The notes below the pieces were generated by a model. It searched no databases. It was given only the letters and a program-made list of their open reading frames with translations, and was not told the origin of the DNA. This document shows, piece after piece, positions 14,047 through 31,878 of a stretch of 64,000 bases of DNA (positions are counted from its first letter, which is position 1; every line of letters starts with the position of its first letter). The translations under genes and the position numbers were made by a program. The DNA lies in contig JASEHH010000007.1 in the NCBI GenBank assembly GCA_030017685.1, positions 1,824 to 65,823 on the forward strand. Reading direction: 5' to 3'. Origin of the DNA: Thermodesulfobacteriota bacterium (GTDB lineage: Bacteria > Desulfobacterota > BSN033 > UBA1163).

Positions 14047-14264
14047 TCTTCCCTCCTGACGATTCTTTCAAAGCGAAATAATAACCCATAAGTCTGATTT
14101 AGTGAAGCGAACAGATAAAGGGGGAGGCGTAAAGAGAAGGTTAGAAATGCTCCTCATATGGGATTTTCTTGATGAATTGACCTCGGGGGTATTTTCTTTT
14201 ATAAAGATGTCAAATGTCAACGAAAAAGAAAGGGTGTCTTAAAAAAATATCTTAAAAAATCCTC

Positions 14265-14293
14265 TTGACAACAAATTTGGGTTGTGTTACATA
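14265..14293 (+). promoter_or_regulatory. putative promoter of the aro operon (TTGACA, 17 nt, TACATA) with conserved spacer AAATTTGGGTTG shared with the trp promoter
   Basis: TCTTGACAACAAATTTGGGTTGTGTTACATA here versus TCTTGACAAGAAATTTGGGATGAGTTAAAGA at 25809-25840. Confidence 0.4.
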
Positions 14294-14428
14294 ACACCTC
14301 CAGAAGGTGAAAAATGGATCAGCTTCATCATCTTAATTTTAGCAGTGGGTTTTATTTTTATTGGTTCTTCTATGCCGGGATCTGCCCACTGCCTCGCGCT
14401 GATCATTAATAAATAAAAAAACAGTTAA

Positions 14429-14506
14429 GGCCGTGGGTAGATTAAATTCTACCCACGGCCTTTTTTATTTTCAGCCGTGGGAAAATCCTTCTCACGGCTT
14501 TTTTTA
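14429..14506 (+). terminator. two tandem intrinsic-terminator hairpins in the 5' leader of the aro operon (candidate attenuator)
   Basis: GGCCGTGGGTAG-ATTAAATT-CTACCCACGGCC then TTTTTTATTTT. Then AGCCGTGGG-AAAATCCTT-CTCACGGCT then TTTTTTTAT. The 3' arm of hairpin 1 is complementary to the 5' arm of hairpin 2. Confidence 0.55.
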
Positions 14507-14531
14507 TCCTGGAAAAGGAGGTCAGAGTCTC

Positions 14532-15332
14532 ATGATTGGGAAAAGGATTCGTCTGGAACGCATCATAGACCGGAACTCCGGCAAGACAGTGATCATACCC
14601 ATGGATCACGGAGTGACGGTAGGGCCAATGGCCGGGTTGATCAGAATCCAAGAGACGATCAATGCCGTCGCAATGGGCGGAGCGAGCGCCATCGTTATCC
14701 ATAAGGGACTGGTAGAGACCGGCCACCGGCGAGGCGGAAAGGATGTGGGGTTGGTCGTTCATCTTTCGGCGAGCACCCGGATCGCCCCTAATCCAAACTC
14801 CAAAACTATGGTATGCACGGTGGAGGAGGCGATCAAGTTAGGGGCGGATGGAGTTTCCATACATGTGAATCTTGGAGCTGAGGATGAAAGATCCATGCTG
14901 AATGATCTGGGTAATGTAGGGAGGGTGGCTATGGAATGGGGAATGCCGCTTTTAGCCATGATGTACACGCGAGGTCCCAAGATAAAGAATGAATATGATG
15001 TTGAGTTGGTAAAACATGCGGCTCGAGTAGGAGCTGAGCTCGGAGCAGATATCGTCAAGGTCCCCTATACGGGTTCTGTGGAGAGCTTTAGCGAAGTGGT
15101 GGAAGGTTGTCCTATTCCAGTGGTTATTGCCGGCGGGGAGAAGATGGGAAATGATCGGGATATTTTAAACATGGTTAAGGGAGCGATGGATGCAGGAGGG
15201 GCTGGAGTTTCCATCGGCAGAAATGTTTTCCAGCATAAGGACCCGAGGAGGGTCGTTCAGGCCATTTTCAAGATCGTTCACCATGGCTGCACGGTCGAGG
15301 AGGGACTGAAGGGTTTGGAGGAGGGAATATGA
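14532..15332 (+). CDS. aroA': 2-amino-3,7-dideoxy-D-threo-hept-6-ulosonate (ADH) synthase, class I aldolase DhnA family (archaeal-type first step of the shikimate pathway)
   Basis: ATG at 14532 after RBS AAGGAGG. IIPMDHG...[12 protein letters not shown]...ADIVKVPY is typical of the MJ0400-type aldolase. The next gene is DHQ synthase II. Confidence 0.75.
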
Positions 15333-16321
15333 AAAAGATCTGGGTAAAGTCGATTCCCTGGAACCAGGAGATCGCTCTCACGGCAATGGAGAGTGGGGCA
15401 GATGGACTCTGGATCCCGGCAGGGATGAGGGAAGAGGTGCGAAAGATAGGCATCATTTCTATCATCGCCGAGGATGGGGATTTGAAATTAGGCCATGATG
15501 TGGTGGAGAAAGAGATTCGGGAGAAGAGAGACGAAGAAGAGATTGTGACCTTAACCCTCTCGAAGAAAGTGGTGGTGAAAAATGGAGACTGGAGGATCAT
15601 CCCTCTGGAGAATTTATTAAGCAGGACCAATAACCTCTTCGTTGAGATCGACAACTTTTTGGAGGGGGAAACGGCACTGGGTATCCTTGAAAAGGGGGTA
15701 GATGGGGTGGTGATCAACAGTCCCGATCCAAATGTGGTGCGGGAGATCATCCACTCCCTCAAGAGAGAGGCCGAAAGATTTGAACTCCTTACGGCCAGGA
15801 TCAAGCAGATTAAACCCCTCGGCCTGGGAGACCGGGTCTGTATCGATACCTGTTCTTCAATGCTCCTGGGCGAAGGGATGTTGGTGGGCAATAGCAGCCA
15901 GGCCCTCTTTCTCGTTCATTCCGAGAGCATTGAGAACCCTTTTGTCAATACGAGACCTTTCCGGGTCAATGCCGGTCCTCTGCATTCCTATATTCGCTTG
16001 GCCGATGGCCAGACGAAGTATCTCTCAGAGATCTGTTCAGGCGATCGGGTTCTGATCGTCAATTTCGAAGGGAAGAGTTTCCCTGCAGTGGTGGGGAGGG
16101 CCAAGATAGAGAGGCGTCCTTTGGTCCTGGTGGAGGCCGAGGAAAACGACCAGGTCATTTCAATTATTCTGCAGAATGCAGAAACGATCAGGCTCACTCA
16201 GCCTTGTGGAAAAGCGATATCCCTGGTCGATCTCAAAGAGGGGAGCGAGGTCCTGGTCTATCGGGAGACATTCGCCAGACATTTCGGGGTCAAGATCGAC
16301 GAGACCATCGTGGAAAGGTGA
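15329..16321 (+). CDS. aroB': 3-dehydroquinate synthase II (archaeal type)
   Basis: 330 aa starting [30 protein letters not shown], characteristic of DHQ synthase II (MJ1249 family). Overlaps neighbouring genes. Confidence 0.75.
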
Positions 16322-16324
16322 GCC

Positions 16325-16996
16325 ATGCTCAAAATCTGCATCCCCATTATCGAGACCACTGTGGAGAAGGCTCGTCGCTCCATTGGAGAGGCTCACCAAT
16401 GGGCTGACCTCATTGAGCTTCGGGTCGATTATTTGAAAAAACCTGAACTCAAGCCACTCATGGACCATGGAGGAAAGTCTTTCATCGTTACGAACCGACG
16501 AAAGGAGGAGGGGGGAAGATACGAAGGGGACGAGAGGAGGAGATTCAGGATCTTGAGGGAGGCCGTGGAATTAGGCGCTCAATATGTGGATATCGAAGTG
16601 AAAAGCAGCCCCTTTTTTCTCCAGGACATGATTTCAAATAAAAAGAGGACACGAATGATTCTCTCCTTCCACAATTTTCAGGGAACCCCCTCCCCAGGAG
16701 AGTTGAGAAGGCTTTACGATCGTATGGTTCGATGGAGACCGGATGTCGTAAAGGTGGCAACCCTTGCCACGTCATGGGAGGATAATTTCAAGGTCCTGTC
16801 GCTTATCCCCTATGCGAGAAAAGAGAAGCAGAAGATCGTAGCCTTTTGTATGGGGGAGAAGGGAAGGATGAGCCGCATTTTTGCTCCCATGATGGGAGCC
16901 GGCTGGACCTATGCCTCTTTGAACAGGAATCGGATTTCAGCCCCCGGCCAATTGACCGTAACAGAATTGAGGGAAATCTGGGAGAGGTTGAGATGA
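16325..16996 (+). CDS. aroD: 3-dehydroquinate dehydratase, type I
   Basis: Ligand-binding motifs ELRVDYL and DIEVK, and about 220 aa in length. Confidence 0.85.
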   Translation: MLKICIPIIETTVEKARRSIGEAHQWADLIELRVDYLKKPELKPLMDHGGKSFIVTNRRKEEGGRYEGDERRRFRILREAVELGAQYVDIEVKSSPFFLQDMISNKKRTRMILSFHNFQGTPSPGELRRLYDRMVRWRPDVVKVATLATSWEDNFKVLSLIPYARKEKQKIVAFCMGEKGRMSRIFAPMMGAGWTYASLNRNRISAPGQLTVTELREIWERLR

Positions 16997-17862
16997 TCGA
17001 TGCTCAAACCGAGCTTTACGGAATCATCGGAAATCCGGTCCGGCACAGTCTGAGTCCGATCCTCCATAATGGGGTTTTTCGAAGGATGGAAATCAACGCC
17101 GTCTATCTGGCCTTGGAAGTCAAACATCTTAAAGAAGCCCTGAGTGGGATCAAAGCGTTGGGCCTACGGGGGGTGAGCGTGACGATCCCGTTTAAGACCG
17201 AGGTTTTCTCCCTGCTCGATGAAGTGGATGAGGTATCGGGAAAAATCAAATCGGTAAATACGATTGTCAATAAAGAGGGAAATTTGATCGGCTACAACAC
17301 CGATTGGCAGGGGGCAATGGAAGCCCTGGAGGAAAAGGTGAATTTAAAGGAAAAGAAGGTCCTTCTCCTCGGAGCCGGAGGTTCAGCTCGTGCCATAGGC
17401 TTTGGCCTGAAAGAGAAAATGTCCCAGATAATCGTATACAACCGATCACAGAATAGGGCTGAGGCATTGGCGAAGGAACTGGGATGCAACCATTGCCCGC
17501 TTTCATCGGTTGAGGAGATGGAGTGGGATATTATCGTCAATGCCACCTCTGTCGGTATGTATCCCCATGATGCGGAGAGCCCTATCCCGAAAGAGGTCTT
17601 GAAGAAAGGGATGGTTGTGATGGACATTGTCTATCAACCGCTACGGACGAGGCTCCTTCAGGAAGCTGAAGAACAGGGGTGTGTGACGATCGATGGGCTC
17701 GAAATGCTTGCCCGCCAGGGAGCGGCCCAGCTTGAAATCTGGATAGGTAGAAGACCTGATCTCAAGGAGATCAGGGAAGATCTGTGGCGAGCACTGGGGA
17801 GAGTTCCCCTCACCCCATCCCTCTCCCCAGCGGGGAGAGGGGAAGTCGCCGACGCGTCATAG
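16993..17862 (+). CDS. aroE: shikimate dehydrogenase
   Basis: MIDAQTELYGIIGNPVRHSLSPILHN and GAGGSARA Rossmann motif. The ATG at 16993 overlaps the aroD stop. Confidence 0.85.
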   Translation: MIDAQTELYGIIGNPVRHSLSPILHNGVFRRMEINAVYLALEVKHLKEALSGIKALGLRGVSVTIPFKTEVFSLLDEVDEVSGKIKSVNTIVNKEGNLIGYNTDWQGAMEALEEKVNLKEKKVLLLGAGGSARAIGFGLKEKMSQIIVYNRSQNRAEALAKELGCNHCPLSSVEEMEWDIIVNATSVGMYPHDAESPIPKEVLKKGMVVMDIVYQPLRTRLLQEAEEQGCVTIDGLEMLARQGAAQLEIWIGRRPDLKEIREDLWRALGRVPLTPSLSPAGRGEVADAS

Positions 17863-17902
17863 CTGCTTTGGCAACGGCGCGGATGAGGGAGTGATAAAAG
17901 GA

Positions 17903-19162
17903 ATGATTCAAATCAGACCGCTTGCTGATCTTGATGCAACCGTGACTATTCCGGGGTCAAAAAGCTTTACCCACCGGGCTCTCATCGTCTCTGCTTTGGG
18001 AGAGGGGGAGTCTGTTTTGATCCATGCCCTAAGAAGTGAGGATACGGAATATACAGTCCAAGCATTGAAAAGACTCGGAATTCAAATCTTCCTGGAAGGA
18101 GACCGGTTACATGTTCTTGGAGAAGGGGGGAGGCTGAAGCAAGAGGAAGGGGAAATTTTTATCGGTAACTCCGGGACCTCCATGAGGTTTTTAACGGCGT
18201 TGGTTGCCCTTAAGAAGGGGACCACTCTGCTGGATGGGAACGAACGGATGAGAAAACGACCCATGGCAGACCTCTTAGAGGGTTTGAGGGCATTAGGGGT
18301 CAAGGCCTATTTCAGAGAGGGGAATGACTGCCCTCCAGTGATGATCGAATCACAGGGACTCCTTGGAGGAAAGGCGACCATCCGGGGAGAAGAGAGCAGT
18401 CAGTTTCTATCCGGCCTCCTCATGGTGGCTCCCTATGCCCAGGAGGATGTTACCCTGGAAGTAACGGGTCACTTGGCTTCCAGGCCATATGTGGACATCA
18501 CCTGTGAGGTGATGAGAGACTTTGGCGTGAGAGTTCATCGCGATGGGAATCGATTTTTTTCTGTAAAGGCAGGACAGAGATATCATCCCCGGCGATACTT
18601 CGTCGAGGGAGATGCCTCCCACGCCTCCTATTTTTTTTCAGCAGCGGCGGTGACGAGAGGCAAGGTCAGGGTTAAAAACTTTCGTCCAGATTCGATCCAG
18701 GGAGATTCAGGCTTTCTCAATATCCTTGAAAGGATGGGGTGCGAAGTCCTCCGGGGAGATGAGTGGGCCGAAGTTCACGGCAAGGAACTGAAAGGAATAG
18801 AGGTTGATATGAATGAGATGCCTGATCTGGTTCCAACCCTTGCAGTCACCTCGGCATTTGCTTGTGGAAAGACGTTGATCAAGAATATCGGCCATCTCCG
18901 TCTCAAGGAATCGGATCGTATCGGGGTGTTGGCCAGGGAGCTGAGCCGGATTGGAATTCAAGTAGAAGAGGGAGAGGACTGGCTGAAGATCGAAGGCGGA
19001 AGAGGTCATGGAGCGGAGATCGACCCCCATAACGACCACCGCATCGCCATGAGCTTTGCCATCGCAGGACTGGTCATCCCTGGAATAAGGATTAAAGAAC
19101 CCCAATGTGTGAAGAAATCTTTTCCAGATTTTTGGGAAGTTTTTGGGAGGCTTTACCTATGA
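17903..19162 (+). CDS. aroA: 3-phosphoshikimate 1-carboxyvinyltransferase (EPSP synthase)
   Basis: TVTIPGSKSFTHRALIVSAL and LGNSGTSMRFL motifs. An alternative GTG start lies at 17891. Confidence 0.9.
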   Translation: MIQIRPLADLDATVTIPGSKSFTHRALIVSALGEGESVLIHALRSEDTEYTVQALKRLGIQIFLEGDRLHVLGEGGRLKQEEGEIFIGNSGTSMRFLTALVALKKGTTLLDGNERMRKRPMADLLEGLRALGVKAYFREGNDCPPVMIESQGLLGGKATIRGEESSQFLSGLLMVAPYAQEDVTLEVTGHLASRPYVDITCEVMRDFGVRVHRDGNRFFSVKAGQRYHPRRYFVEGDASHASYFFSAAAVTRGKVRVKNFRPDSIQGDSGFLNILERMGCEVLRGDEWAEVHGKELKGIEVDMNEMPDLVPTLAVTSAFACGKTLIKNIGHLRLKESDRIGVLARELSRIGIQVEEGEDWLKIEGGRGHGAEIDPHNDHRIAMSFAIAGLVIPGIRIKEPQCVKKSFPDFWEVFGRLYL

Positions 19163-19689
19163 ACCTTGTCTTAATCGGATTCAGGGCCGCAGGGAAAACC
19201 ACGGTGGGCAGAAGACTGTCGGCTTACCTGCGAAGGGTGTTTGTGGATTCAGATGATATGATTGAGAAACACCAGGGGACGACTATCAAAGATATTGTGG
19301 AAGGTCATGGATGGGACTATTTCAGAGCTATTGAGAGAGAAGTCATTTCGGAAGTTTCAAACGATGACAATCTGATTATTTCTGCAGGTGGAGGCGTGGT
19401 CATCGATCCCAAGAATGTAAATGCCCTAAGAAAGAAGGGCTTCATCATCTGGTTAAAGGCAGATGTTGAAGTCCTCCTGAGACGAATGGCTCAAGATCAT
19501 CGGACAATGACAGGAAGACCCAGTCTTACAGGAAAGGATTGCTTAAAAGAGTTCAGGGAGGTGCTCATCCAACGGGAACCACTCTACGAAAGGGCTTCAG
19601 AAGTCCAGGTGGATACATCGCTGTTGGATGTGGATGGGGTGGTCCATCAGGTTCTCTCTATCTTTGAGGAAAGGCTGGTGAGGGTTTAA
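19159..19689 (+). CDS. aroK: shikimate kinase
   Basis: MNLVLIGFRAAGKTTVGRRLS carries the P-loop. Confidence 0.85.
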   Translation: MNLVLIGFRAAGKTTVGRRLSAYLRRVFVDSDDMIEKHQGTTIKDIVEGHGWDYFRAIEREVISEVSNDDNLIISAGGGVVIDPKNVNALRKKGFIIWLKADVEVLLRRMAQDHRTMTGRPSLTGKDCLKEFREVLIQREPLYERASEVQVDTSLLDVDGVVHQVLSIFEERLVRV

Positions 19690-19690
19690 T

Positions 19691-20749
19691 TTGGGAGGAA
19701 ATTCATTCGGAAATCTTTTTAGGATCACGACCTGGGGGGAGTCCCATGGAAAGGCATTGGGTGTGGTCATTGACGGGTGCCCGTCTGGAATGGAACTTTC
19801 TGAAGAAGAGATTCAGAAAGAGATGGATAGAAGACGCCCGGGCCAGGGCCTGGGATCAAGTTCCAGAAAGGAGAGAGATCGGATTGAGATCCTCTCCGGT
19901 GTCTTCAAAGGAAAGACGACGGGAACGCCCATTTTTCTTCTGGTGAGAAATGAGGATGTGGATTCCAGTCCTTATGAGGAATGGAAAGAGGTCTTCAGGC
20001 CCGGTCATGCTGATTTTACCTATCAGGCCAAATACGGAATCAGGGACTATCGGGGGGGAGGCAGGGCTTCGGCGAGGGAGACCGTAGGAAGGGTGGCGGC
20101 TGGAGCGATCGCCAAGAAAATCTTAGCCCAAGAGAAGATCAACATCCTTGCTTACACGTTAGAACTCGGGGGAATCCGTGCTGACAAGGTCAATCTTGGT
20201 GAGGTGGAGAAGAATTTGCTCCGTTGTCCTGACCCACAGGCCGCTCTCGCAATGGAACGGAAGATTGAAGAAGCGAAACTCGAGGGCGATACGCTCGGAG
20301 GCATTGTAGAGATTCTTGTCCTTGGATGTCCTCCCGGGTTGGGGGAGCCTGTCTTCGATAAATTGGAAGCCGATCTGGCCAAAGGGTTGCTGAGCATCGG
20401 AGCCATACGAGGCGTGGAAATAGGAGCCGGATTTAAGGCTGCCCGGATGCTTGGATCAGAGTGTAATGATCCCCTGGGGCCGGACGGGTTCGAAAAAAAC
20501 GATTCGGGTGGAATTTTAGGAGGAATATCGAATGGAGAGGATATCCTGCTCCGAGTAGCCGTGAAGCCCATTCCCTCTATCTCGATGAAGCAAAAAACTG
20601 TGGATCATTCCATGAAGCCTGTGTCACTGCAAATCAAGGGGCGGCATGATGTTTCAGCCATCCCACGAATTAATTCTGTCTGTGAGGCCATGGTGGCCAT
20701 TGTTCTGGTCGATCATTTACTCCGGCAGAAAGCAATCGGGAGGACATGA
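19691..20749 (+). CDS. aroC: chorismate synthase (TTG start)
   Basis: FGNLFRITTWGESHG and RPGHADFTYQAKYG signature motifs. Confidence 0.9.
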   Translation: MGGNSFGNLFRITTWGESHGKALGVVIDGCPSGMELSEEEIQKEMDRRRPGQGLGSSSRKERDRIEILSGVFKGKTTGTPIFLLVRNEDVDSSPYEEWKEVFRPGHADFTYQAKYGIRDYRGGGRASARETVGRVAAGAIAKKILAQEKINILAYTLELGGIRADKVNLGEVEKNLLRCPDPQAALAMERKIEEAKLEGDTLGGIVEILVLGCPPGLGEPVFDKLEADLAKGLLSIGAIRGVEIGAGFKAARMLGSECNDPLGPDGFEKNDSGGILGGISNGEDILLRVAVKPIPSISMKQKTVDHSMKPVSLQIKGRHDVSAIPRINSVCEAMVAIVLVDHLLRQKAIGRT

Positions 20750-21828
20750 AGATGGGAAGGCAAGATAGGATTCAAGACCTTCGACAGAGGATTGATGCTT
20801 TAGACAGACAAATCCTCCACCTTTTGAATGAGCGGGCAGAGATAGTATTGGAGGTGGGGAAGGTGAAATTAGAAGAAAAAATAGGCTCCTATGACCCTGA
20901 TCGGGAGGCGGAGATTCTGCGACACCTCATTCAAGAACATTCCGGACCCTTTCCGAAGCAGGCCATTGTTCCAGTCTTTCGAGAGATCGTCTCAGCCTGT
21001 CGCCTCCTTGAAAGGAAATTAGCAGTTATCTATCTGGGGCCTCCTGCCAGCCATACCCATCAGGCCTGTGTCAAACATTTCGGGATCTCTATAGAGGCGA
21101 TCTCCAGTGAGAACATTTGGGACATCTTTGAAAGCGTGGAAAAGGAGAAAGTGGATTTTGGTATAGTGCCCATTGAAAATTCCACCGAAGGGGTCGTGAA
21201 CCAGACCTTAGACATGTTTATTGGATCTGAGGTTAAAATCTGGGGTGAGATCATGGTTCAGATTTCCCACGACCTTCTCTCAAAAAGCGGGAGGTGCCAA
21301 GACATTCGAAAAATAGTTTCCCATCCTTCAGCCCTCGCACAGTGCAGGGAATGGTTGAGAAAAAACTTTCCCGAGGTTGAGAAGGTGGAAACGGCCAGCA
21401 CGGCAAAGGCTGCCCAACTCGCCGTGCAGGACAAGGCTGTTGCAGCGGTTGCCGGTTCCCTTGCCGCCCGACTCTATGGCCTAAAGGTGATTGAATCAAA
21501 AATTGAAGATCACCTCCAGAATTATACGCGCTTCCTGATTCTCAGCCACCAGTTCAGGGAGAAGACAGGAAGGGATAGGACATCGATTCTTTTTTCGATT
21601 CCACATTCTCCGGGCTCCCTCTTCCGGGTGCTTAAACCCTTTGATGAGAGGAAGATTAATCTGACCAAGATCGAATCGCGACCTGTCAAAAATAAGCCAT
21701 GGGAATATATCTTCTTTTTAGATTTTGAGGGCCATGTCTCAGACGCTCACATTCACGAGACCTTGAAGGAGATGGAAGATAAAGTCCTTTTTATGAAGTT
21801 TCTGGGCTCTTACCCCAGGAACGCATAA
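20746..21828 (+). CDS. pheA: bifunctional chorismate mutase / prephenate dehydratase (P-protein) with C-terminal ACT domain
   Basis: N-terminal chorismate-mutase helix (LRQRIDALDRQILHLLNERAEI), PDT domain (AVIYLGPPASHTHQA...TRF) and ACT domain (TSILFSIPHSPGSLFRVL). Confidence 0.85.
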   Translation: MKMGRQDRIQDLRQRIDALDRQILHLLNERAEIVLEVGKVKLEEKIGSYDPDREAEILRHLIQEHSGPFPKQAIVPVFREIVSACRLLERKLAVIYLGPPASHTHQACVKHFGISIEAISSENIWDIFESVEKEKVDFGIVPIENSTEGVVNQTLDMFIGSEVKIWGEIMVQISHDLLSKSGRCQDIRKIVSHPSALAQCREWLRKNFPEVEKVETASTAKAAQLAVQDKAVAAVAGSLAARLYGLKVIESKIEDHLQNYTRFLILSHQFREKTGRDRTSILFSIPHSPGSLFRVLKPFDERKINLTKIESRPVKNKPWEYIFFLDFEGHVSDAHIHETLKEMEDKVLFMKFLGSYPRNA

Positions 21829-23603: not shown

Positions 23604-24767
23604 ATGGATTCAGTCGTCATCGTTTTAAAAGGAAAGGATCCGTATCTCACGACAAAAAAGGCACTTCAACAATTCCCCTTGCCGAATTTGAAGGGAAGAA
23701 GGGCCTTGATAAAACCGAATGCGGCTCGGTTGGCCGTCCCCGGTGAAGGAGTGACAACACATCCCGGGGTGGTTGAAGCCACGATCGATCATCTGAAAGA
23801 AAAAGGAGCAGGTGAGATTGCGATCGGTGAGAGTTGTATCTTTGGAGTGGATCCAGAGCAGGCCTTCCGGGCAACCGGCATGAAGGAGGTTTCGGAAAAA
23901 AAGAGGGTTGAACTCATACATTTAGACCGGGTTGCCCCGATGGAAATCAAAATCCCTGGAGGAAAGGTTCTAAAGAGCATTAGAGTGCCTGCCATCTTAA
24001 AAAAATTCGATTTCATCATCTCAATCCCTGTGATGAAAACCCACATGCATACCCGGGTTACATTAAGCATTAAAAATATGAAGGGGTTATTATGGCGAAG
24101 GGAGAAGGCAAGGCTACATCAACTCCGATGCAATGGGAAAGTTGCTCAAGGGGATAAGGCCCTGGATATTGCCATATCCGATATGGCCTCGGTCTTATTT
24201 CCCCATTTGGCCATCATCGATGGGACAACAGGACTGGAGGGAATGGGACCTGCTTATGGAAGAAAGAAAGAGGCGGGGCTTATCGTTTTAGGGAATGACC
24301 CCGTTTCCGCAGATGCTGTAGCCACACGACTGATGGGGTTTCCCCCGGAAGAAGTACCTCATCTAAGATTGTTAGCAGAAAGGGGACTGGGTGAAATCCA
24401 ATTTTCAAACATTTCAATCAAACCGGGGGATTTTTTAAAGTGGGAGACACATTTTGAGCTTCCACCTTCCAAACTCTCTTTCTCCTTTCCCGATGTCGTG
24501 ATTCACGATGAAGGATCATGCAGTGCCTGTCTTTCAACATTATTTGTTCTTCTTCATCGTTACAAGGATTTGCTTACTCCCCACCGCTTAGGGGATAATA
24601 AAATTCACATTGGCATTGGAAAACATCTGGAGAATATTTCCAGAGGGACGATCTTGATAGGTAACTGTACCCATAAGATGAAAAAGAGGGGCACCTTTGT
24701 CAAGGGATGCCCTCCTGTGGCTTCCGAGGTCCTGAGGTTATTATCCTCATTGGGTGTTTATGTTTAA
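23604..24767 (+). CDS. DUF362 domain protein
   Basis: 387 aa. Its layout (IKPNA...G..THP.VV...KTH....T...KN.KG) is typical of DUF362. Confidence 0.6.
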   Translation: MDSVVIVLKGKDPYLTTKKALQQFPLPNLKGRRALIKPNAARLAVPGEGVTTHPGVVEATIDHLKEKGAGEIAIGESCIFGVDPEQAFRATGMKEVSEKKRVELIHLDRVAPMEIKIPGGKVLKSIRVPAILKKFDFIISIPVMKTHMHTRVTLSIKNMKGLLWRREKARLHQLRCNGKVAQGDKALDIAISDMASVLFPHLAIIDGTTGLEGMGPAYGRKKEAGLIVLGNDPVSADAVATRLMGFPPEEVPHLRLLAERGLGEIQFSNISIKPGDFLKWETHFELPPSKLSFSFPDVVIHDEGSCSACLSTLFVLLHRYKDLLTPHRLGDNKIHIGIGKHLENISRGTILIGNCTHKMKKRGTFVKGCPPVASEVLRLLSSLGVYV

Positions 24768-24780
24768 GGAGGTGCCCTTT

Positions 24781-25815
24781 ATGATTTTTGATAGGCTTTC
24801 CGAGCGGGGGACAAGGTTCCTGAATGTAAAATACCCGATCATTTCAGGAGGGATGACCTGGGTGAGCAATGTGGCTCTCGTGAAGGCTGTTAGCCAGCAT
24901 GGGGTTTTCCCCGTTCTTGCAGGAGGGAATTTGCCACCTGATGCTTTTGAAAAGGAGGTGGATCAATGTCTTCAGGAACTGACCGGACCGTTCGCTGTGA
25001 ATCTGATCACCATTGCCCCAAATTATAAGACGCAGTTTGAAATTCTCCTTTCAAAAAAAGTTCCTTTTGTTGTTTTCGCTGGAGGTATTCCGCGGAAGGT
25101 GGATATCGAGCGAATGAAAAAGGTTGGCAAAAAAACCATGTCCTTTGCCTCGGATGAATCCATTGCCTCACAACAAATCCGTTTCGGTATCGATGCGCTC
25201 CTTCTCGAAGGAAGCGAGGCAGGAGGCCACATTGGCCATGTCTCACTGGTCATCCTTTTACAGCAGGTGCTTTTCCGATTCGATCAGGTTCCGGTTTTCG
25301 TTGCCGGCGGAATTGCGATAGGCAGGATGGTCGCCCATCTTTTGCTGATGGGTGCGGCGGGTTGCCAGCTCGGAACGAGATTTGCGATGAGTGAGGAGTG
25401 CACCGCACACCCGGATTTCAAAAAGACTCTCATGAGGGCCCGCGCCCGACAAGCCATCGCCACACCGCAATATGATTCCAAACTTCCTGTTGTCGCCGTC
25501 CGGGCCATCAAGAACAAAGGGACAGAGGATTTCGGGAGGCTCCAGTTGAGACTCCTCAGAGAACTTGAAGAAGGAAAGATCAGCCGGGAAAAAGCCCAGT
25601 ATGAGGTTGAAAATTTCTGGATGGGTGCGCTTCGGCGGGCAGTGGTCGAAGGAGATGTTGACCATGGATCATTAATGGTGGGACAGAGTGTGGGGTTGAT
25701 TCGCGAAATCTTGCCCATGAGAGATATCGTCGAAAACCTTGTCAGAGAGGCCGAAGAAGAATTGATAAGAATAAAGGAAGGGTTGGATGGAAAATTAGCC
25801 CACGAAACTTCTTGA
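24781..25815 (+). CDS. nitronate monooxygenase / FabK-like (NPD family) FMN oxidoreductase
   Basis: ATG after RBS AAGGAGG. YPIISGGMTWVSNVALVKAVSQHG and GSEAGGHIG motifs. Confidence 0.7.
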   Translation: MIFDRLSERGTRFLNVKYPIISGGMTWVSNVALVKAVSQHGVFPVLAGGNLPPDAFEKEVDQCLQELTGPFAVNLITIAPNYKTQFEILLSKKVPFVVFAGGIPRKVDIERMKKVGKKTMSFASDESIASQQIRFGIDALLLEGSEAGGHIGHVSLVILLQQVLFRFDQVPVFVAGGIAIGRMVAHLLLMGAAGCQLGTRFAMSEECTAHPDFKKTLMRARARQAIATPQYDSKLPVVAVRAIKNKGTEDFGRLQLRLLRELEEGKISREKAQYEVENFWMGALRRAVVEGDVDHGSLMVGQSVGLIREILPMRDIVENLVREAEEELIRIKEGLDGKLAHETS

Positions 25816-25840
25816 CAAGAAATTTGGGATGAGTTAAAGA
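25812..25840 (+). promoter_or_regulatory. putative trp operon promoter (TTGACA, 17 nt, TAAAGA) sharing spacer motif AAATTTGGG with the aro promoter
   Basis: See the 14265-14293 entry. The -35 hexamer overlaps the stop codon of the upstream gene. Confidence 0.4.
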
Positions 25841-25887
25841 AGTACTACTTTAATGGAGCATGTAACGTGAAGACTACCTTTGGATTG

Positions 25888-25950
25888 ATGAATAATAGCT
25901 GGTGGTGCTGGGCGAAAAAAGAGGAGGAGGTCTGTCCGGTGCCACAATAA
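25888..25950 (+). CDS. trpL: trp leader peptide MNNSWWCWAKKEEEVCPVPQ (three Trp codons)
   Basis: A 20-codon ORF located between the putative promoter and a terminator hairpin, 130 nt upstream of trpE. Weak SD (GGA). Confidence 0.5.
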   Translation: MNNSWWCWAKKEEEVCPVPQ

Positions 25951-25979
25951 CCATTTGAATCGAAAGTAAAGGCCATGGA

Positions 25980-26027
25980 CAGCTTCTCTCTTGCTCCCAT
26001 GGCCTTTTTTGTTTTTTAGGGAATATC
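25980..26027 (+). terminator. intrinsic terminator / attenuator hairpin (GGCCATGG..CCATGGCC then TTTTTTGTTTTTT)
   Basis: An 8-9 bp GC-rich stem followed by two U-runs. Confidence 0.6.
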
Positions 26028-26036
26028 AACCTTAAC

Positions 26037-26066
26037 CTCAACCTCAACCTCAACCTTTTTATTCAT
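26037..26066. repeat. hexanucleotide tandem repeat (CAACCT)x5 with one TAACCT variant, followed by TTTTT
   Basis: Read directly, 16 bp upstream of the trpE start. Confidence 0.8.
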
Positions 26067-26081
26067 CCTGGAGGATTAACC

Positions 26082-27560
26082 GTGGCGACTCCATCTTTAG
26101 AAGATTTTAAGAGACTGGCTGCTCAGGGCAACCTCATTCCCATCTTTAAGGAGGTTCACTTTGACTGGGAGACACCCCTCTCAGCATTCCGGAAGATCGA
26201 CGATGGAAAGTTTTCTTTCCTCCTCGAAAGCGCAGAAGGAGGGGAGAAATGGGGCCGATACAGTTTTCTTGGCTCAGGACCCTCTCTTCTCTTCCGAACA
26301 AAAGGAGAGGAGTTCGAAATCCTTAAGAATGGAGAGGTTCTTCGAGAGGGGAAGGATAAGGATCCGCTCCGTGCGCTGGAGGGTCTCCTGAAGCATTACC
26401 GTCCTGTTCTTCATGATTCCCTTCCACGTTTTTTCGGAGGAGCAGTTGGGTATGTCAATTATGATGTGGTCAGGTCTTTTGAGAAACTTCCGGAACAGCT
26501 CCCTCAGGACATAGGTCTTTATGACTCCTATTTCATGGTCACCGATACCCTGCTCGTCTTCGACAATGTGAAGCAGAAGGTCAAGGTGATTTCCAATACA
26601 TTCTTAGATGGCCAAAAACCCTTGGAAGAGGTCTACCGAGAAGCTCAGGAGAAGATTAAAAACATCATTGTCAAGATCCAAAGCCCAGCGCCCACTTCTC
26701 CCGTGCAAAAATTTTTCTCTCTCTCTTCTCTTCACTCAAACTTCAGCCGGGAAGATTTTATGAAAGGGGTGGAAAGGGCTAAGGAATATATTAAAGCGGG
26801 TGATGTTATTCAGGTGGTCCTCTCACAACGGTTCTCTACAGAGATCCATTGTCAGCCCTTTGATATCTATCGTGCCCTGAGGTCAATCAACCCTTCCCCT
26901 TATCTTTTTTATTTGAAGATGGATGATATTGTCCTTCTGGGGGCTTCACCCGAGGTGATGGTCCGTCTGGAAGACAGGCAGATTGAGCTCCGGCCACTCG
27001 CTGGAACTCGCAGAAGAGGAAGGACTGAGGAGGAAGATAGATCGATGGAAAGGGACCTACTGGCGGATGAGAAGGAAAGGGCGGAGCACATCATGCTGGT
27101 TGACCTTGGCCGAAATGACGTGGGCCGAGTAGCCGAGATCGGCTCGGTTGAAGTTACGGAATTGATGGGTGTGGAACGCTACTCCCACGTCATGCATATC
27201 GTCTCTCATATCCGTGGATCTCTGGCACAAGATAAAAACGCTTTCGACGTCTTCAGGGCAGCTTTTCCTGCCGGGACGGTATCCGGTTCCCCTAAGATTC
27301 GGGCCATGGAGATCATCGAGGAGCTGGAACCTGTCCGGCGCGGGCCTTACGCCGGAGCGGTGGGTTACTTCAGTTTTTCCGGAAACATGGACACCTGTAT
27401 CACGATTCGTTCCATTCTCATCAAAGACGGCAAGGCTTACGTCCAGGCAGGCGCAGGGATTGTCGCTGACTCGGATCCGGAGAAAGAATACGACGAGACC
27501 CTGAATAAGGCGCAGGCCGTCTTCAAGGCCATTCAACTTGCCGAGGAGGGATTGAGATGA
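26082..27560 (+). CDS. trpE: anthranilate synthase component I
   Basis: 492 aa with chorismate-binding domain motifs (LESAEGGEKWGRYSF, GAVGYFSFSGNMDTCITIR). Confidence 0.9.
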   Translation: MATPSLEDFKRLAAQGNLIPIFKEVHFDWETPLSAFRKIDDGKFSFLLESAEGGEKWGRYSFLGSGPSLLFRTKGEEFEILKNGEVLREGKDKDPLRALEGLLKHYRPVLHDSLPRFFGGAVGYVNYDVVRSFEKLPEQLPQDIGLYDSYFMVTDTLLVFDNVKQKVKVISNTFLDGQKPLEEVYREAQEKIKNIIVKIQSPAPTSPVQKFFSLSSLHSNFSREDFMKGVERAKEYIKAGDVIQVVLSQRFSTEIHCQPFDIYRALRSINPSPYLFYLKMDDIVLLGASPEVMVRLEDRQIELRPLAGTRRRGRTEEEDRSMERDLLADEKERAEHIMLVDLGRNDVGRVAEIGSVEVTELMGVERYSHVMHIVSHIRGSLAQDKNAFDVFRAAFPAGTVSGSPKIRAMEIIEELEPVRRGPYAGAVGYFSFSGNMDTCITIRSILIKDGKAYVQAGAGIVADSDPEKEYDETLNKAQAVFKAIQLAEEGLR

Positions 27561-28120
27561 TTCTGGTTATCGATAATTATGACTCCTTTACATATAACCT
27601 GGTTCAATACCTCGGTGAACTGGGATCAACATGCGTAGTCTATCGGAACGATGAGATCGATCTTCAGACCATCGAAGAGAAGAATCCGAACCATCTGGTC
27701 ATCTCCCCGGGCCCTTGCACCCCAAGAGAAGCGGGCATCTCCGTACAGGCAATCCTCCGGATGGCCGGGAAGATTCCCATTCTCGGAGTCTGCCTGGGAC
27801 ATCAGTGTTTGGGGGCTGCTTTCGGAGGAGAGATCGTTCAGGCCAAACGCCTGATGCATGGGAAAGGTTCTCTAATCTATCATGATGGAAAGACGATCTA
27901 TAAAGACCTTCCTAACCCTTTTCAGGCCATCCGGTATCACTCGCTTCTCATTGAGCGAAAGAGCCTGCCAGATTGCCTGGAGATTTCTGCGGAGACTCAA
28001 GAAGGGGAGATTATGGGCGTGAGGCACAAACGATTTTCCATCGAAGGGGTCCAATTCCACCCCGAATCAATCATGACGGAAGGAGGAAAAATCCTTCTTA
28101 AGAATTTCTTAGAAATATAA
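27557..28120 (+). CDS. trpG: anthranilate synthase component II (glutamine amidotransferase)
   Basis: MILVIDNYDSFTYNLVQYL, GVCLGHQ and HPES triad. Confidence 0.9.
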   Translation: MILVIDNYDSFTYNLVQYLGELGSTCVVYRNDEIDLQTIEEKNPNHLVISPGPCTPREAGISVQAILRMAGKIPILGVCLGHQCLGAAFGGEIVQAKRLMHGKGSLIYHDGKTIYKDLPNPFQAIRYHSLLIERKSLPDCLEISAETQEGEIMGVRHKRFSIEGVQFHPESIMTEGGKILLKNFLEI

Positions 28121-28393
28121 TCCCCCCATCCCCCCCTTTCGGAGAGGGTGTCGTAATGGAGTTAATGGGCAACTCTTGGCAGAGCAGGTGGTCGGGTTCC
28201 TCACCTTTAGAATGCGGGTCTTTTAAGTTAGAGGGAAGAGGACTTTTAGATAATTCAATGTTTTCATAAGTTTGGAGCGACAGAGCTTAACAACGAAAGG
28301 TTTCCGCTCTAAAGGTTCGTCACCCAACCACCCGCTCCGCCTCTTATATAGGTGGCTTTTGGTGGATTATGACACAGTCTCCAAAGGGGGGGA
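28121..28393. repeat. MITE-like element, family B, copy 1 (inverted ends CCCCCCCTTTCGGAGAGGGTGTCGTAAT / ATTATGACACAGTCTCCAAAGGGGGGG)
   Basis: Fills the entire trpG-trpD intergenic spacer. Its terminal inverted repeats match those of the element at 30219-30454. Confidence 0.5.
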
Positions 28394-28409
28394 TTAGAAT
28401 TAGAGGAGG

Positions 28410-29435
28410 ATGGCCATGTTTAAAGAGCTCATTAAACGATTGGTGGAAGGGAAGGACTTAAGGGAAGATGAGGCTTATGAGGCCATGTCATCCATCATGG
28501 ACGGGAAAGCCCTGCCCACCCAGATCGCTTCGTTTCTCACTGCCCTGAGGATGAAGGGGGAGACGGTCCCGGAGATTACCGGATTCGCACGGGCGATGAG
28601 AGCCCGAGCTCTCCCGATCCGATCAGCGAACGGGGAATATGTTGTGGACACTTGTGGTACCGGTGGGGATGGAAACAACACCTTTAACATTTCCACTGCT
28701 GTGGCTTTCGTTGCCGCTGGCAGTGGGTTAACCGTGGCCAAACATGGGAACCGTTCGGTGTCGAGCCAGTGCGGAAGCGCTGATGTTTTGGAGGCTTTAG
28801 GGGTTAACATCAATCTCGTCCCTGAGAGGGTGGAGCGTTGTTTGCTGGAGGTCGGCATGGCTTTTCTCTTTGCCCCTCTTTTTCATCCCGCCATGATGTA
28901 CGCCATCGGCCCACGAAGGGAGATGGGATTCCGCACGGTCTTCAACCTCCTCGGCCCCCTGACCAATCCAGCCGGAGCCAACGTTCAGGTTATAGGGGTT
29001 TACCGTAAGGATCTCGTTGGGCCAATCGCGGAGGTATTGAGAAATCTCGGATGCAAAGGAGCCCTGGTCGTCCATGGAGAGGATCATTGCGATGAGATCA
29101 GCATTACGGGGAAAACATTCATTGTCCAGCTTCAGAGGGGGAGGATTGAAAGTTATGAGGTTGAGCCCGAAGATATCGGCCTGAAGAGGAGGACCTTAGA
29201 GCAGATCCGGGGGGGAGGAGCGCAGGAGAATAAAAATATTCTCCTGGAGATTTTGGAGGGAGTCCATGGCCCCAGGCGGGAGGTTGTCCTTTTAAATGCA
29301 TCGGCTGTCTTTATGGCCGCAGAAAGGGTTTCAAACTTAAGGGACGGAATGGAAATGGCTGAAGAGTCCATTGACTCGGGCCGGGCAATGAGAAAACTTA
29401 AAGAGCTCATCCAATTTACGAATCGTGAGGGGTGA
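28410..29435 (+). CDS. trpD: anthranilate phosphoribosyltransferase
   Basis: GTGGDG and HGNRSVSS motifs, and about 340 aa. Confidence 0.9.
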   Translation: MAMFKELIKRLVEGKDLREDEAYEAMSSIMDGKALPTQIASFLTALRMKGETVPEITGFARAMRARALPIRSANGEYVVDTCGTGGDGNNTFNISTAVAFVAAGSGLTVAKHGNRSVSSQCGSADVLEALGVNINLVPERVERCLLEVGMAFLFAPLFHPAMMYAIGPRREMGFRTVFNLLGPLTNPAGANVQVIGVYRKDLVGPIAEVLRNLGCKGALVVHGEDHCDEISITGKTFIVQLQRGRIESYEVEPEDIGLKRRTLEQIRGGGAQENKNILLEILEGVHGPRREVVLLNASAVFMAAERVSNLRDGMEMAEESIDSGRAMRKLKELIQFTNREG

Positions 29436-30217
29436 TGAAGATGTTTCTAAGAAAAATCGTCGAGAAAAAAAAGGAAGAGGTCGAAGTGAGAAAAAAGATC
29501 TTCTCCATTAGGGAGAGGGAGGAAGGGATTTCAAACCTTTCCCTTCCCCGGGATTTGATGGAGGCGATCTCTCAACATGCCCCCATGGCACTCATTGCTG
29601 AAATTAAGTTTGCCTCCCCCTCTGCCGGAGTGATCAAGACGGATGGAGATCCTCGCCAAATCGCAAGCGAATATGAGTCGGCAGGAGCCTCAGCCATTTC
29701 GGTTCTCACAGAACCCAATTTTTTCAAAGGGGATCTTTCCTATCTGGGCTTGGTGAAAGAGAAAACCTCCCTCCCCGTCCTTCAAAAGGATTTCATCATC
29801 GATCCTTTCCAGATTTTTGAAGGAAGGGCCGCGGGGGCGGATGCAGTCCTTCTCATCGCTGCCATTCTCGATCGAGAACAACTCAACGATTTTGTGGACC
29901 TGGCAACAAGCCTCCGGATGGTCCCTCTGGTTGAAATTCACGATGAGGACGATCTTGAAAAGATATCAACTCTCTCTCTTCCTCTGATAGGGATTAATAA
30001 CAGGAACTTGAAAACGTTTGAAGTTGACCTAAGGACGACCCTTCGGCTAAAGAAGGAGATTTCCTCGAGATCAAAAGTGATCAGTGAGAGCGGAATTAAG
30101 AGTTCCCATGAGGTGAGAGTACTTAGAGAAGCAGGAGTGGATGGCATTCTGGTGGGAGAGATTTTGATGAGAAGTTCCGATCCCACCTCAAAAATTAAGG
30201 AGCTTCTCAAGGGATGA
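29435..30217 (+). CDS. trpC: indole-3-glycerol phosphate synthase
   Basis: ALIAEIKFASPSAG and LLIAAIL motifs. Its start overlaps the trpD stop. Confidence 0.85.
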   Translation: MKMFLRKIVEKKKEEVEVRKKIFSIREREEGISNLSLPRDLMEAISQHAPMALIAEIKFASPSAGVIKTDGDPRQIASEYESAGASAISVLTEPNFFKGDLSYLGLVKEKTSLPVLQKDFIIDPFQIFEGRAAGADAVLLIAAILDREQLNDFVDLATSLRMVPLVEIHDEDDLEKISTLSLPLIGINNRNLKTFEVDLRTTLRLKKEISSRSKVISESGIKSSHEVRVLREAGVDGILVGEILMRSSDPTSKIKELLKG

Positions 30218-30218
30218 C

Positions 30219-30454
30219 CACCCCCACCCATCCCTCCCCCCTCGGGAGACTGTGTCGCAATTGGGGAAATGGTCAAAAATGTCATGCTTTGAACCAGGTG
30301 CTGAACTTGTTTCAGTATTGTTTCAGCATCTCATAGAATCAACTACTTACGAGACCCTGAAATAAATTCAGGGTGACAAAATAATTATTACGACACAGTC
30401 TCTCGGAAGGGGAGGGTGAGCCTGCCTGCCGCAGGCAGGGGTGGGGGAGGAGAA
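30219..30454. repeat. MITE-like element, family B, copy 2, inserted at the trpC/trpF junction and flanked by direct repeat GATGA(CC)
   Basis: Left end CCACCCCCACCCATCCCTCCCCCCTCGGGAGACTGTGTCGCAAT. The right end is its inverted complement. The left flanking repeat contains the trpC TGA stop and the right one contains the trpF ATG. Confidence 0.55.
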
Positions 30455-30455
30455 G

Positions 30456-31088
30456 ATGACCTGGATTAAGATCTGCGGGATCACTAATATTGAAGACGGC
30501 TTAGAGGCTGTTTCGCTGGGAGTTAATGCACTGGGCTTTATCTTCGCTCCCAGCCCGAGAAGGGTTGAGCCTTCTGTAGCGAAGGAGATCATTTCGGTTC
30601 TTCCTGAAACGCTTTTAAAAGTGGGAGTCTTTGTGAATGAAGATCCGGAAGAAGTCCTGCGAGTTGCTGAATATTGTGGCCTCAATGTCCTTCAATTTCA
30701 TGGACAGGAGTCACAGGAGTATTGTCAGAAATTTTTTATTCCGGTCTTCAAGGCCATTCGCATAAAGAATTTGGAAAGCTTAAAAGATATTGAGAATTAT
30801 CACGATGTGACCATCCTTCTTGATACCTACAGTCCTGTACAAGCGGGTGGAACGGGGAATCCCTTTCCAGGGGAGATCGCACTAAAAGCGAAAGAGGAAA
30901 GAGACTTTATCCTCTCCGGAGGACTGAGCCCATCGAATGTGGGAGAAGCCATCAAGAAAGTGAGGCCCATGGGAGTGGATGTTTGCTCAGGTGTGGAGGT
31001 AACTCCGGGAAAGAAAGATCCATTAAAAATGAGGGATTTTATAAAGGAGGTCAGAAAAGCGGATGAGCAGGATCGATCAAACATTTAA
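30456..31088 (+). CDS. trpF: phosphoribosylanthranilate isomerase
   Basis: MTWIKICGITNIEDGLEAVSLGVNALGFIF is typical of PRAI. Confidence 0.85.
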   Translation: MTWIKICGITNIEDGLEAVSLGVNALGFIFAPSPRRVEPSVAKEIISVLPETLLKVGVFVNEDPEEVLRVAEYCGLNVLQFHGQESQEYCQKFFIPVFKAIRIKNLESLKDIENYHDVTILLDTYSPVQAGGTGNPFPGEIALKAKEERDFILSGGLSPSNVGEAIKKVRPMGVDVCSGVEVTPGKKDPLKMRDFIKEVRKADEQDRSNI

Positions 31089-31878
31089 AAAATTGAAAAA
31101 TAAATTTCGGGCGGCTTTGATCCCTTTTATCGTTGCCGGTGATCCGGATCTCGGTACAACAGAGGCGCTCATATTCAAAATGGTCGAAAACGGAGCGGAT
31201 ATGATCGAACTGGGCGTCCCTTTTCCAGAGCCGATTGCAGATGGCCCCACCATTCAGGCGACACACAAGCGAGCCCTCCAAAATGGAATCGGTCTAAAAG
31301 AGATACTCCGTATGACAGAGAGATTAAGAGACAGAATCCCACCTCTGATCCTGATGACCTACTTAAACCCTGTCTTAGAGTATGGCCTAAGAGATTTTGC
31401 AAAGGACTGCAAAGAGAATGGCGTCGATGGAGTCATTATCCCTGATCTAACTCCTGAAGAAGCAATGAAATGGGTCCGGGAAGCCCGAAGAACCGATTTA
31501 GACACTATTTTTCTTATTAACCCGGACAGTCCACTAGAACTTGTGAGATGGGCGAGCCGATCCAGTCGTGGATTTATTTACTATGCCACGGTGGCCGGTG
31601 CCACCGGTATAAGAGAGACTTTGCCAGAAGATCTCGAACGGTCTGTCAAGCGAATAAAAGAACAGAGTCAGAAGCCGGTGGCCGTCGGCTTCGGCATTTC
31701 CACTCCGGAACAGGCGAAGACGATCAGCCGTTTTGCTGATGGAGTTGTTGTGGGAAGCGCGATTGTGAAGATCATCGAGGAGAACCTCAAAAATCCGAAT
31801 ATGGTTAAAAGAGTAGGAGATTTCCTTGCCTCTTTTGCCAGGGCATTAAAAGGAAGTGGAAGGGAAATTAAATCATGA
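31063..31878 (+). CDS. trpA: tryptophan synthase alpha chain
   Basis: ALIPFIVAGDPDLGTT..ADMIELGVPFPEPIADGP motif. Confidence 0.9.
   Translation: MSRIDQTFKKLKNKFRAALIPFIVAGDPDLGTTEALIFKMVENGADMIELGVPFPEPIADGPTIQATHKRALQNGIGLKEILRMTERLRDRIPPLILMTYLNPVLEYGLRDFAKDCKENGVDGVIIPDLTPEEAMKWVREARRTDLDTIFLINPDSPLELVRWASRSSRGFIYYATVAGATGIRETLPEDLERSVKRIKEQSQKPVAVGFGISTPEQAKTISRFADGVVVGSAIVKIIEENLKNPNMVKRVGDFLASFARALKGSGREIKS

Follow-up and report, generated by a model that had tools for sequence, protein, structure and literature searches.

Attenuation through leader peptides is established in both Proteobacteria and Actinobacteria (PMC2965389, PMC1262725), the amino-acid attenuator families of Rfam being described as essentially gamma-proteobacterial (PMC3766115), and wider attenuator predictions have been published (Lopatovskaya et al. 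2010, as cited in PMC4833913). In the literature on delta-proteobacteria, Syntrophus and Desulfovibrio we found no described trp attenuator, although one may already figure among the predictions of Lopatovskaya et al. 2010; tryptophan is not mentioned in the delta-proteobacterial regulon study PMC545781. Here we analysed a 64-kb stretch of DNA from a Thermodesulfobacteriota bacterium (the window, below), in which positions 25800-26090 separate a FabK/nitronate-monooxygenase-like gene (24754-25815) from trpE. This short region is very probably a ribosome-mediated leader-peptide transcription attenuator of the trpEGDCFA operon. It shares its layout with the trpL leader of E. coli and other enterobacteria (RF00513): a promoter-proximal short open reading frame (ORF) with adjacent Trp codons in the first RNA segment, four segments that pair as 1:2, 2:3 and 3:4, and an intrinsic terminator ahead of trpE; the stop codon is positioned such that segment 2 is masked by a ribosome terminating there. 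The trpE product scored 584 bits against NCBIfam TIGR00564, and trpE is the first gene of trpE-G-D-C-F-A, the downstream genes having been assigned by family matches. A preliminary description of this DNA, made from the letters alone, had proposed a classical trp attenuator before trpE, and the present comparison argues for the same reading: the leader ORF, the Trp codons held in helix 1:2, and the 2:3 and 3:4 pairings are all present and conserved.

The translated part of the element consists of the following features.
25855..25858, + strand: Shine-Dalgarno sequence GGAG, 8 nt ahead of GTG 25867
25867..25950, + strand: leader ORF of 27 codons with a GTG start, (M)KTTFGLMNNSWWCWAKKEEEVCPVPQ and stop, taken from the ORF list
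25900..25911, + strand: regulatory codons TGG TGG TGC TGG, the Trp codons (TGG at 25900, 25903 and 25909) being codons 12, 13 and 15

A short translatable ORF with clustered Trp codons is thus found between the promoter and the first structural gene, and no other small ORF in the window has three Trp codons in four positions. The exact motif AAGGCCRTGG occurs in the window only in this leader and in a second attenuator ahead of the aro operon, described below. Since the motif is restricted to the two attenuators and the whole element is kept in close relatives, the arrangement goes beyond chance.

Four RNA segments make up the alternative structures.
25902..25913, + strand: segment 1 (GUGGUGCUGGGC), paired with segment 2 in the minimum free energy (MFE) fold
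25922..25945, + strand: segment 2, lying in ORF codons 19-27; 25934-45 pair with segment 1, and 25927-43 (extended from 25922) with segment 3
25968..25992, + strand: segment 3; 25968-78 form the 5' arm of the terminator, and 25971-86 (extended to 25992) the 3' side of the antiterminator
25997..26017, + strand: segment 4 (CCAUGGCCUUU) followed by the U-tract UUUUUUGUUUUUU, which together with segment 3 form the intrinsic terminator

The terminator stem is an 11-bp perfect inverted repeat (AAAGGCCATGG at 25968-78 and CCATGGCCTTT at 25997-26007, 100% complementary) around a loop of 18 nt, with the tail TTTTTTGTTTTTT at 26005-26017. Its U-tract, U6GU6, ends 64 nt ahead of trpE, and the region thus has an intrinsic terminator, with GC-rich stem and U-tract, 5' of the first structural gene. 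The hairpin and U-tract had earlier been placed at 25980-26027; they are real, but those coordinates were about 10 nt off, the stem starting at 25968 and the U-tract running to 26017. A generic promoter and terminator scan called neither element. Because its -10 rule and its 3-8 nt loop limit exclude both, this miss is a limit of the scan and not evidence against the element.

When the full-length leader was folded without constraint, the MFE structure combined helix 1:2 (25902-13 with 25934-45) with the 3:4 terminator; in isolation, helices 1:2, 2:3 and 3:4 had energies of -19.7, -16.7 and -20.2 kcal/mol, respectively. When a ribosome footprint was imposed on the Trp codons and the transcript was cut before segment 4, the constrained fold gave the 2:3 antiterminator at -22 to -24.5 kcal/mol, in which 25927-43 (extendable from 25922) pair with 25971-86 (to 25992). 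When the footprint was instead placed on the stop codon, with the leader at full length, the terminator alone formed, and the constrained folds of six relatives behaved likewise. The preliminary description had suggested folding the leader for an alternative antiterminator, and such a helix was indeed found under constraint, with 1:2 plus 3:4 otherwise. Helix 2:3 excludes the terminator, while 1:2 holds the regulatory codons and excludes the antiterminator. A ribosome covers about 12-15 nt either side of its position, which we assumed in considering the stall geometry: from the end of the last Trp codon (25911) it is 16-23 nt to the beginning of the segment 2 core (25927-25934), and the stop codon (25948-50) lies 3 nt past segment 2.

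From these parts and pairings, which are plain in the leader and in its relatives, we infer coupling to tRNA-Trp charging as well as actual termination and read-through, along the following lines. Transcription would start near 25847, and a ribosome would load at GGAG/GTG 25867 and translate the 27-codon leader while the polymerase runs ahead. With plentiful charged tRNA-Trp, the ribosome would pass the Trp codons and reach the stop codon at 25948-50, where its footprint would mask segment 2 (25934-45); segments 3 and 4 could then pair, and the 11-bp stem with its U-tract would end transcription near 26010-26018, before trpE. Without any translation, helix 1:2 would form, and the terminator too. 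With scarce charged tRNA-Trp, the ribosome would stall at codons 12-15 (25900-11) and mask segment 1, leaving segment 2 free to pair with segment 3 as soon as the latter is made, so that no terminator would form and the operon would be transcribed.

We fetched trp loci from genomes and metagenomes by TrpE homology, with 27 distant TrpE loci as a control; the closest relatives were Deltaproteobacteria bacterium CG03, Syntrophaceae bacterium, RBG_16_47_11/48_10 and Thermodesulfobacteriota bacterium. The element was found beside the trp operon in every close relative with upstream DNA retained (TrpE 73-90% identical). A covariance model built from seven leaders (R1) recovered the element ahead of the trp operon at 12 loci (90-148 bits) and at eight of eight further loci fetched through TrpE homologues 76-82% identical. 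Clustered in-frame Trp codons, two to four in number, were present in 16 of the 17 distinct leaders that we read, the frame being broken in the remaining one; the earlier suggestion that orthologous leaders might keep such codons is borne out. The locus L002 (TrpE 79% identical) showed no leader in its 292 nt of upstream DNA, because its contig ends inside mobile repeats of the kind seen between leader and trpE in the near-identical L088.

The leader peptides read as follows.
Window and L079: MKTTFGLMNNSWWCWAKKEEEVCPVPQ
L081: MKITFELMINRWWWCWEKREAEVCPVP
L088: MKITLELMMNLWWRWEKRGGEVYPVPS
L001: MKEIFESKRSNLWRWEKKDVEVCPVPS
L080: MKGLFDFEMNGWWCWEKIEAGVCPVPQ
L091: MKNIFRLNGNHWWCWERKVEEVYPAPL
L164: MGNIFQMKQGNWWCWEKKVVEVCPVPL
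L163: MEIILRIKQSNWWCWANIEKEACPVPL
L162: MENIFKIKQGNWWRWQNIEREVCPVPS
L161: MENIFRIKQGNWWWWQNIKREVCPVPS
L166: MESLFCKNRGYWWWRQNIEREVCPVPS
Second subgroup, 3' of pheA: ...QWWWS..., ...RWWWC..., ...IWWWR..., ...CWWWR...

The main clade has 11 full-length leaders with an intact frame, each of 27 codons. The homologous start codon, ATG for L081 and L080 and otherwise GTG, is preceded at about 5-11 nt by a purine-rich sequence (GGAG, GGGA or AGGA). The preliminary description had instead begun the ORF at the internal in-frame ATG (25888 to TAA 25950, MNNSWWCWAKKEEEVCPVPQ and stop). Its letters, with three Trp codons in four positions, are as it described, but the start is not: the equivalent of this ATG is missing in L001, L091 and L162-L166, while the length of 27 codons and the homologous start are kept, and the leader therefore starts at GTG 25867 and is longer than the 20 codons first assigned. 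Nor does the ATG lie 40 nt past the -10, as had been stated; it is found about 48 nt downstream of the likely -10 hexamer (25834-39).

The same loci bear on a different reading, in which the hairpin simply ends transcription of the FabK-like gene located upstream (24754-25815), with the Trp-rich ORF as a chance frame. The hairpin does lie on the same strand, about 150 nt past the stop codon of that gene, and small ORFs with a W..W pattern do arise by chance, since we found them within 500 nt upstream in four of the 27 distant and unrelated TrpE loci, although none of them resembles this leader. However, the upstream neighbour differs among relatives. It is the FabK-like gene in the window and L079, pheA in L086, L089, L160 and L165, vapBC in L162 and an opposite-strand gene in L164, and in L080, L091, L159, L161 and L166 the leader stands ahead of an extra trpD-like gene, itself located before trpE. 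The unit of ORF and hairpin travels with the trp operon while the neighbouring gene changes, a conserved promoter lies between the FabK-like gene and the leader ORF, and conservation extends to the Trp cluster, the length of the ORF and helices 1:2 and 2:3. Termination of the FabK-like gene is thus largely refuted by synteny as an explanation, and we consider it extremely improbable.

For the attenuator, conservation of the pairings themselves was compared with slid controls in two alignments. Among nine distinct sequences, 92.8% of the cells of 1:2 plus 3:4 were paired against 34-59% in the controls, and 89.6% of those of 2:3 against 33-56%. Among 14 sequences, helices 1:2 and 3:4 reached 94.8% and 96.0% (controls for all four helices of the terminated form, 35-61%) and 2:3 reached 95.2% (controls for all three helices of the read-through form, 29-55%). 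Across both alignments, 1:2 was 89-95% paired and 3:4 96-97% paired. In the nine-sequence set, four pairs of 1:2 plus 3:4 were changed on both sides, and no shuffle reached the observed covariation score; three pairs of 2:3 were changed on both sides in the 14-sequence set. Where codons 22-24 differ at their third position (GTC/GTT, TGT/TGC, CCG/CCA), segments 1 and 3 show matching changes.

Several observations weigh against attenuation by this leader. Covariation is limited, many stem positions never varying, and column shuffling failed to separate 2:3 from chance in the nine-sequence set. The comparative support is mainly conserved pairing with some compensation, not heavy covariation. The leader of L139 has a 5-nt gap, possibly a sequencing error in a contig of only 2.3 kb, and the sole start codon is therefore in another frame than the Trp triplets. 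The leader of L159, truncated 5' where the locus ends, meets an early stop codon three codons past WWRW. Folding of the window's leader as a whole gave a modest z-score (-1.96). Finally, at full length and with a stalled ribosome the terminator fold is more stable than the forced antiterminator (-30.3 against -23.2 kcal/mol), and read-through must therefore rely on kinetic trapping, helix 2:3 forming first. Kinetic trapping of this kind is the accepted logic of the E. coli attenuator.

Peptide conservation in the leaders is limited to the Trp cluster and the stretch over segment 2, the N-terminal half varying freely among relatives. The conserved tail CPVP coincides with RNA segment 2 and is explained by RNA pairing, because the Pro codons CCA and CCG are the reverse complement of the Trp codon UGG; a P-x-P opposite a W-x-W would be expected from the RNA alone. 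The leader thus offers a clean case in which the conserved tail of a leader peptide is a by-product of RNA pairing. The conserved C-terminal EVCPVP could also be taken to mean that the main product is a functional small peptide, or that the terminated leader of about 170 nt is a trans-acting small RNA, cis attenuation being secondary. Attenuator RNAs and leader peptides can indeed act in trans, as do peTrpL and rnTrpL of Sinorhizobium (PMC6614838, PMC7298713). Such a role would add to cis attenuation rather than replace it, and given the free variation of the N-terminal half we regard a mainly trans-acting product as improbable.

Could the attenuator respond to a signal other than translation of the Trp codons, such as a TRAP-like protein, a T-box, a metabolite riboswitch or a nascent peptide sensing free Trp in the manner of TnaC? 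When positions 25000-27000 were searched with Rfam cmscan at E<=10, neither Trp_leader (RF00513) nor a T-box was matched, and in the leader no riboswitch or other cis-regulatory family was found beyond a single S-adenosylmethionine/S-adenosylhomocysteine (SAM/SAH) aptamer match at chance level (25805-25860, 15.4 bits against a gathering threshold of 40, E = 2.5). The GAG triplets at 25920-25928 recall a TRAP site, but there are just three of them, contiguous and far short of an array. A TRAP site needs 9-11 (G/U)AG triplets that stand 2-3 nt apart and overlap the antiterminator. The G-free, C-rich tract at 26022-26069 could in principle load Rho, whereas an intrinsic terminator with a mutually exclusive antiterminator requires no extra factor. 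Residues W12 and P24 of the leader occupy the positions of W12 and P24 in E. coli TnaC. We rejected a nascent-peptide sensor of that type: in a biosynthetic operon, tna-type induction by Trp would have the wrong sign, P24 is not directly followed by the stop codon, and complementarity to the Trp codons in helix 1:2 accounts for the Pro codons. Taken together, a signal of any of these kinds has little probability, and ribosome-mediated attenuation is the reading that we follow below.

A paralogous attenuator lies ahead of the aro operon at 14262-14508 of the window. At 14262, CTCTTGACAAcAAATTTGGGtTGtGTTAcAtAA departs from the trp promoter in only a few positions, the aro promoter reading CTCTTGACA...TTACAT; the aro leader ORF (14315-14410) has a run of Phe/Tyr/Trp codons, and the leader has two tandem terminators (14427-14470 and 14473-14505). 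The trp model R1 matches this leader at 55 bits, and folding it gives a z-score of -8.1. The aro leader has its promoter, segment 2 and terminator stem in common with the trp leader, F/Y/W codons replacing W. The preliminary description had noticed a promoter motif common to the two operons; the motif is real, but it belongs to the whole paralogous attenuator, and the promoter spacer that the two leaders share in the window is not conserved in the trp promoters of relatives. For this reason, shared ancestry within the genome is the simpler and more likely explanation of the promoter likeness than a shared operator. Two operons of one pathway would thus carry paralogous attenuators that differ in their regulatory codons.

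The aro operon (14433-21828) encodes 2-amino-3,7-dideoxy-D-threo-hept-6-ulosonate (ADH) synthase, 3-dehydroquinate (DHQ) synthase II, aroD, aroE, aroA, aroK, aroC and pheA (chorismate mutase/prephenate dehydratase), its first two enzymes representing the archaeal-type entry into the shikimate pathway. Its first gene cannot start at the listed GTG 14433, since this codon lies inside a terminator; the NCBIfam match of this ORF begins at residue 34, and the real start is likely near 14530.

Tandem terminators are also found in trp leaders outside the window. In 13 relatives the first terminator is followed by a small covarying hairpin and a second terminator (AAAAGGCTATGG..CCATAGCCTTTT and a U-tract), in the following places.
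L079 2113-2227, L081 2337-2447, L088 2071-2183 and 10 further loci: first terminator, hairpin and second terminator, an arrangement absent at window 26005-26020

The window sequence past its terminator matches what follows the second terminator in L088, which points to a clean deletion of about 70 nt in the window that fused the two terminators. Segment 5, which forms the 5' arm of the second terminator, can pair with segment 4 (94.9% paired); this complementarity is invariant, so that covariation cannot test 4:5, and segment 6, which has one partner only, is the sole arm that varies. When we folded trp leaders with a stalled ribosome, segment 5 being out and segment 6 not, the MFE structure was 2:3 plus 4:5 in four of five (L079, L081, L088 and L139, not L001).

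These folds tentatively suggest an ancestral relay attenuator, in which one leader peptide governs two successive terminators, the form being kept in the 13 relatives and, analogously, in the aro leader of the window; we put this forward as a possibility that is rather doubtful at present. A stalled ribosome would free segment 2, helix 2:3 would form and release segment 4, and segment 4 would then pair with segment 5, so that neither 3:4 nor 5:6 would terminate. If so, a relay could lower basal read-through without lowering induced expression, the trp copy of the window would be a natural deletion variant with a single hybrid terminator, and, together with the aro paralogue, the leaders would form an attenuator family that is modular and allows its codons to be swapped, within an uncultured clade of Thermodesulfobacteriota. 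The enteric his leader is likewise a chain of more than four alternately pairing segments, of which only the last helix terminates. The six segments of the relatives resemble it in pairing as 1:2/3:4/5:6 or as 2:3/4:5, and the aro leader of the window has analogous tandem terminators. In contrast to the his leader, both 3:4 and 5:6 carry U-tracts in the relatives, giving two terminators, while the trp leader of the window lacks segments 5 and 6.

The signals on either side of the trp leader are as follows.
25812..25817, + strand: -35 hexamer TTGACA, overlapping the stop codon of the FabK-like gene, at the centre of a 21-bp near-palindrome (25805-25825)
25834..25839, + strand: -10-like hexamer TTAAAG, 16 nt past the -35, matching the consensus at three of six positions
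26022..26069, + strand: G-free spacer of 48 nt with five tandem AACCTY hexamers (26028-26057), between the terminator and the ribosome-binding site of trpE
26070-75, + strand: trpE ribosome-binding site GGAGGA, followed by trpE (GTG, 26082-27560)

TTGACA and TTAAAG with their 16-nt spacing make a plausible sigma-70-like promoter, which would place the transcription start near 25846-25848. The -35 region TTCTTGACA is kept at the equivalent place in the leaders of relatives, where GTTAAAT, GTTAAAG, GTTATAA or GTTACAA is found at the spacing of the -10. The near-palindrome centred on the -35, AAACTTCTTGaCAAGAAATTT, is partly kept in relatives and could be either an operator or a coincidence. Tandem Repeats Finder (TRF) gave the AACCTY repeat a period of 6, 5.2 copies and 92% matches, and similar repeats occur in other copy numbers in L081 (three) and L139 (four, plus a duplicated copy flanking an insertion). 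The G-free spacer is possibly an unstructured standby site or a Rho loading site. We also noted a 9-nt perfect complement between 25887-95 and 26059-67, just 5' of the trpE ribosome-binding site, where about 0.2 such matches would be expected by chance in the region; by eye, it is loosely kept in L081.

Within the operon, the gaps between trpG and trpD (28120-28410) and between trpC and trpF (30217-30441) are filled by elements resembling miniature inverted-repeat transposable elements (MITEs), with terminal inverted repeats (for example ...CCCCCCTTTCGGAGAGGGTGTCGTAAT ... ATTATGACACAGTCTCCAAAGGGGGGG), and other repeat elements are located between leader and trpE in L079, L088/L002 and L139. 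The trpF gene (30441-31088) overlaps trpA (31063-31878) with no trpB between them. No frame of the window contains the pyridoxal phosphate (PLP) site signature of TrpB, H[TS]G[AS]HK.N, and trpB must therefore lie outside the window. The extra trpD-like gene between leader and trpE (370-380 amino acids, Glycos_transf_3) is located at 1325-2464 in L080, 369-1481 in L159 and 325-1449 in both L161 and L166, and is also present in L091. The usual trpD follows trpG in L080 and L159, while an acyl-CoA dehydrogenase gene is found there instead in L161, L162, L163 and L166.

The control of trp genes by TRAP in Bacillus or by T-boxes has the same regulatory goal and makes the same choice between terminator and antiterminator, but the leader described here has neither a spaced (G/U)AG array nor a T-box match. 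Elsewhere among the fetched loci, the DNA 5' of trpE in L003 (Thermincola, 2750-2930) has a long TAG/GAG array (GTTAGAGTTAGTTAGAG...) and, after it, a hairpin resembling a terminator; the region has the look of a binding site for TRAP, part of the sequence being masked with N. In L011 (Sediminispirochaeta, 2611-2760), a small ORF 5' of trpE ends in ...NTNLYWWAWR and a stop, with three Trp in four codons, and may be an independent trp leader.

With no match to the Rfam Trp_leader, T-box or riboswitch models, our leader is, as judged from sequence and predicted structure, lineage-specific and not a homologue of the enteric one. Compared with enterobacterial trpL, with which it has no detectable homology in sequence or structure (Rfam, E<=10), it encodes a peptide of 27 codons against 14, it has three Trp codons in four positions where the enteric leader has two, its stop codon is past segment 2 and not ahead of it, and its host belongs to an uncultured Thermodesulfobacteriota (deltaproteobacterial) lineage. 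Comparable in organization are the leaders of Sinorhizobium trpE(G) (PMC6614838) and the Pseudomonas aeruginosa trpL1 and trpL2 with RWRWR (PMC13434334), which likewise have a W or WxW leader ORF, seemingly of independent origin, and a terminator before trpE or trpG; the L001 leader (LWRWE) has the same W-R-W spacing as those of Pseudomonas. They differ from the present leader in sequence and lineage, and here one leader serves a nearly complete operon (trpEGDCFA). Nothing in these comparisons overturns current understanding. Like the leader-peptide attenuators predicted in Actinobacteria (PMC1262725), the present one is lineage-specific, was traced by comparative genomics and lies outside the enterics. 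With it, the classical design of trp attenuation, which was defined by experiment, reaches a deltaproteobacterial clade that is uncultured and abundant in the environment (at least 120 TrpE clusters at least 74% identical), in which this design has been kept while the operon order and its neighbours have changed.

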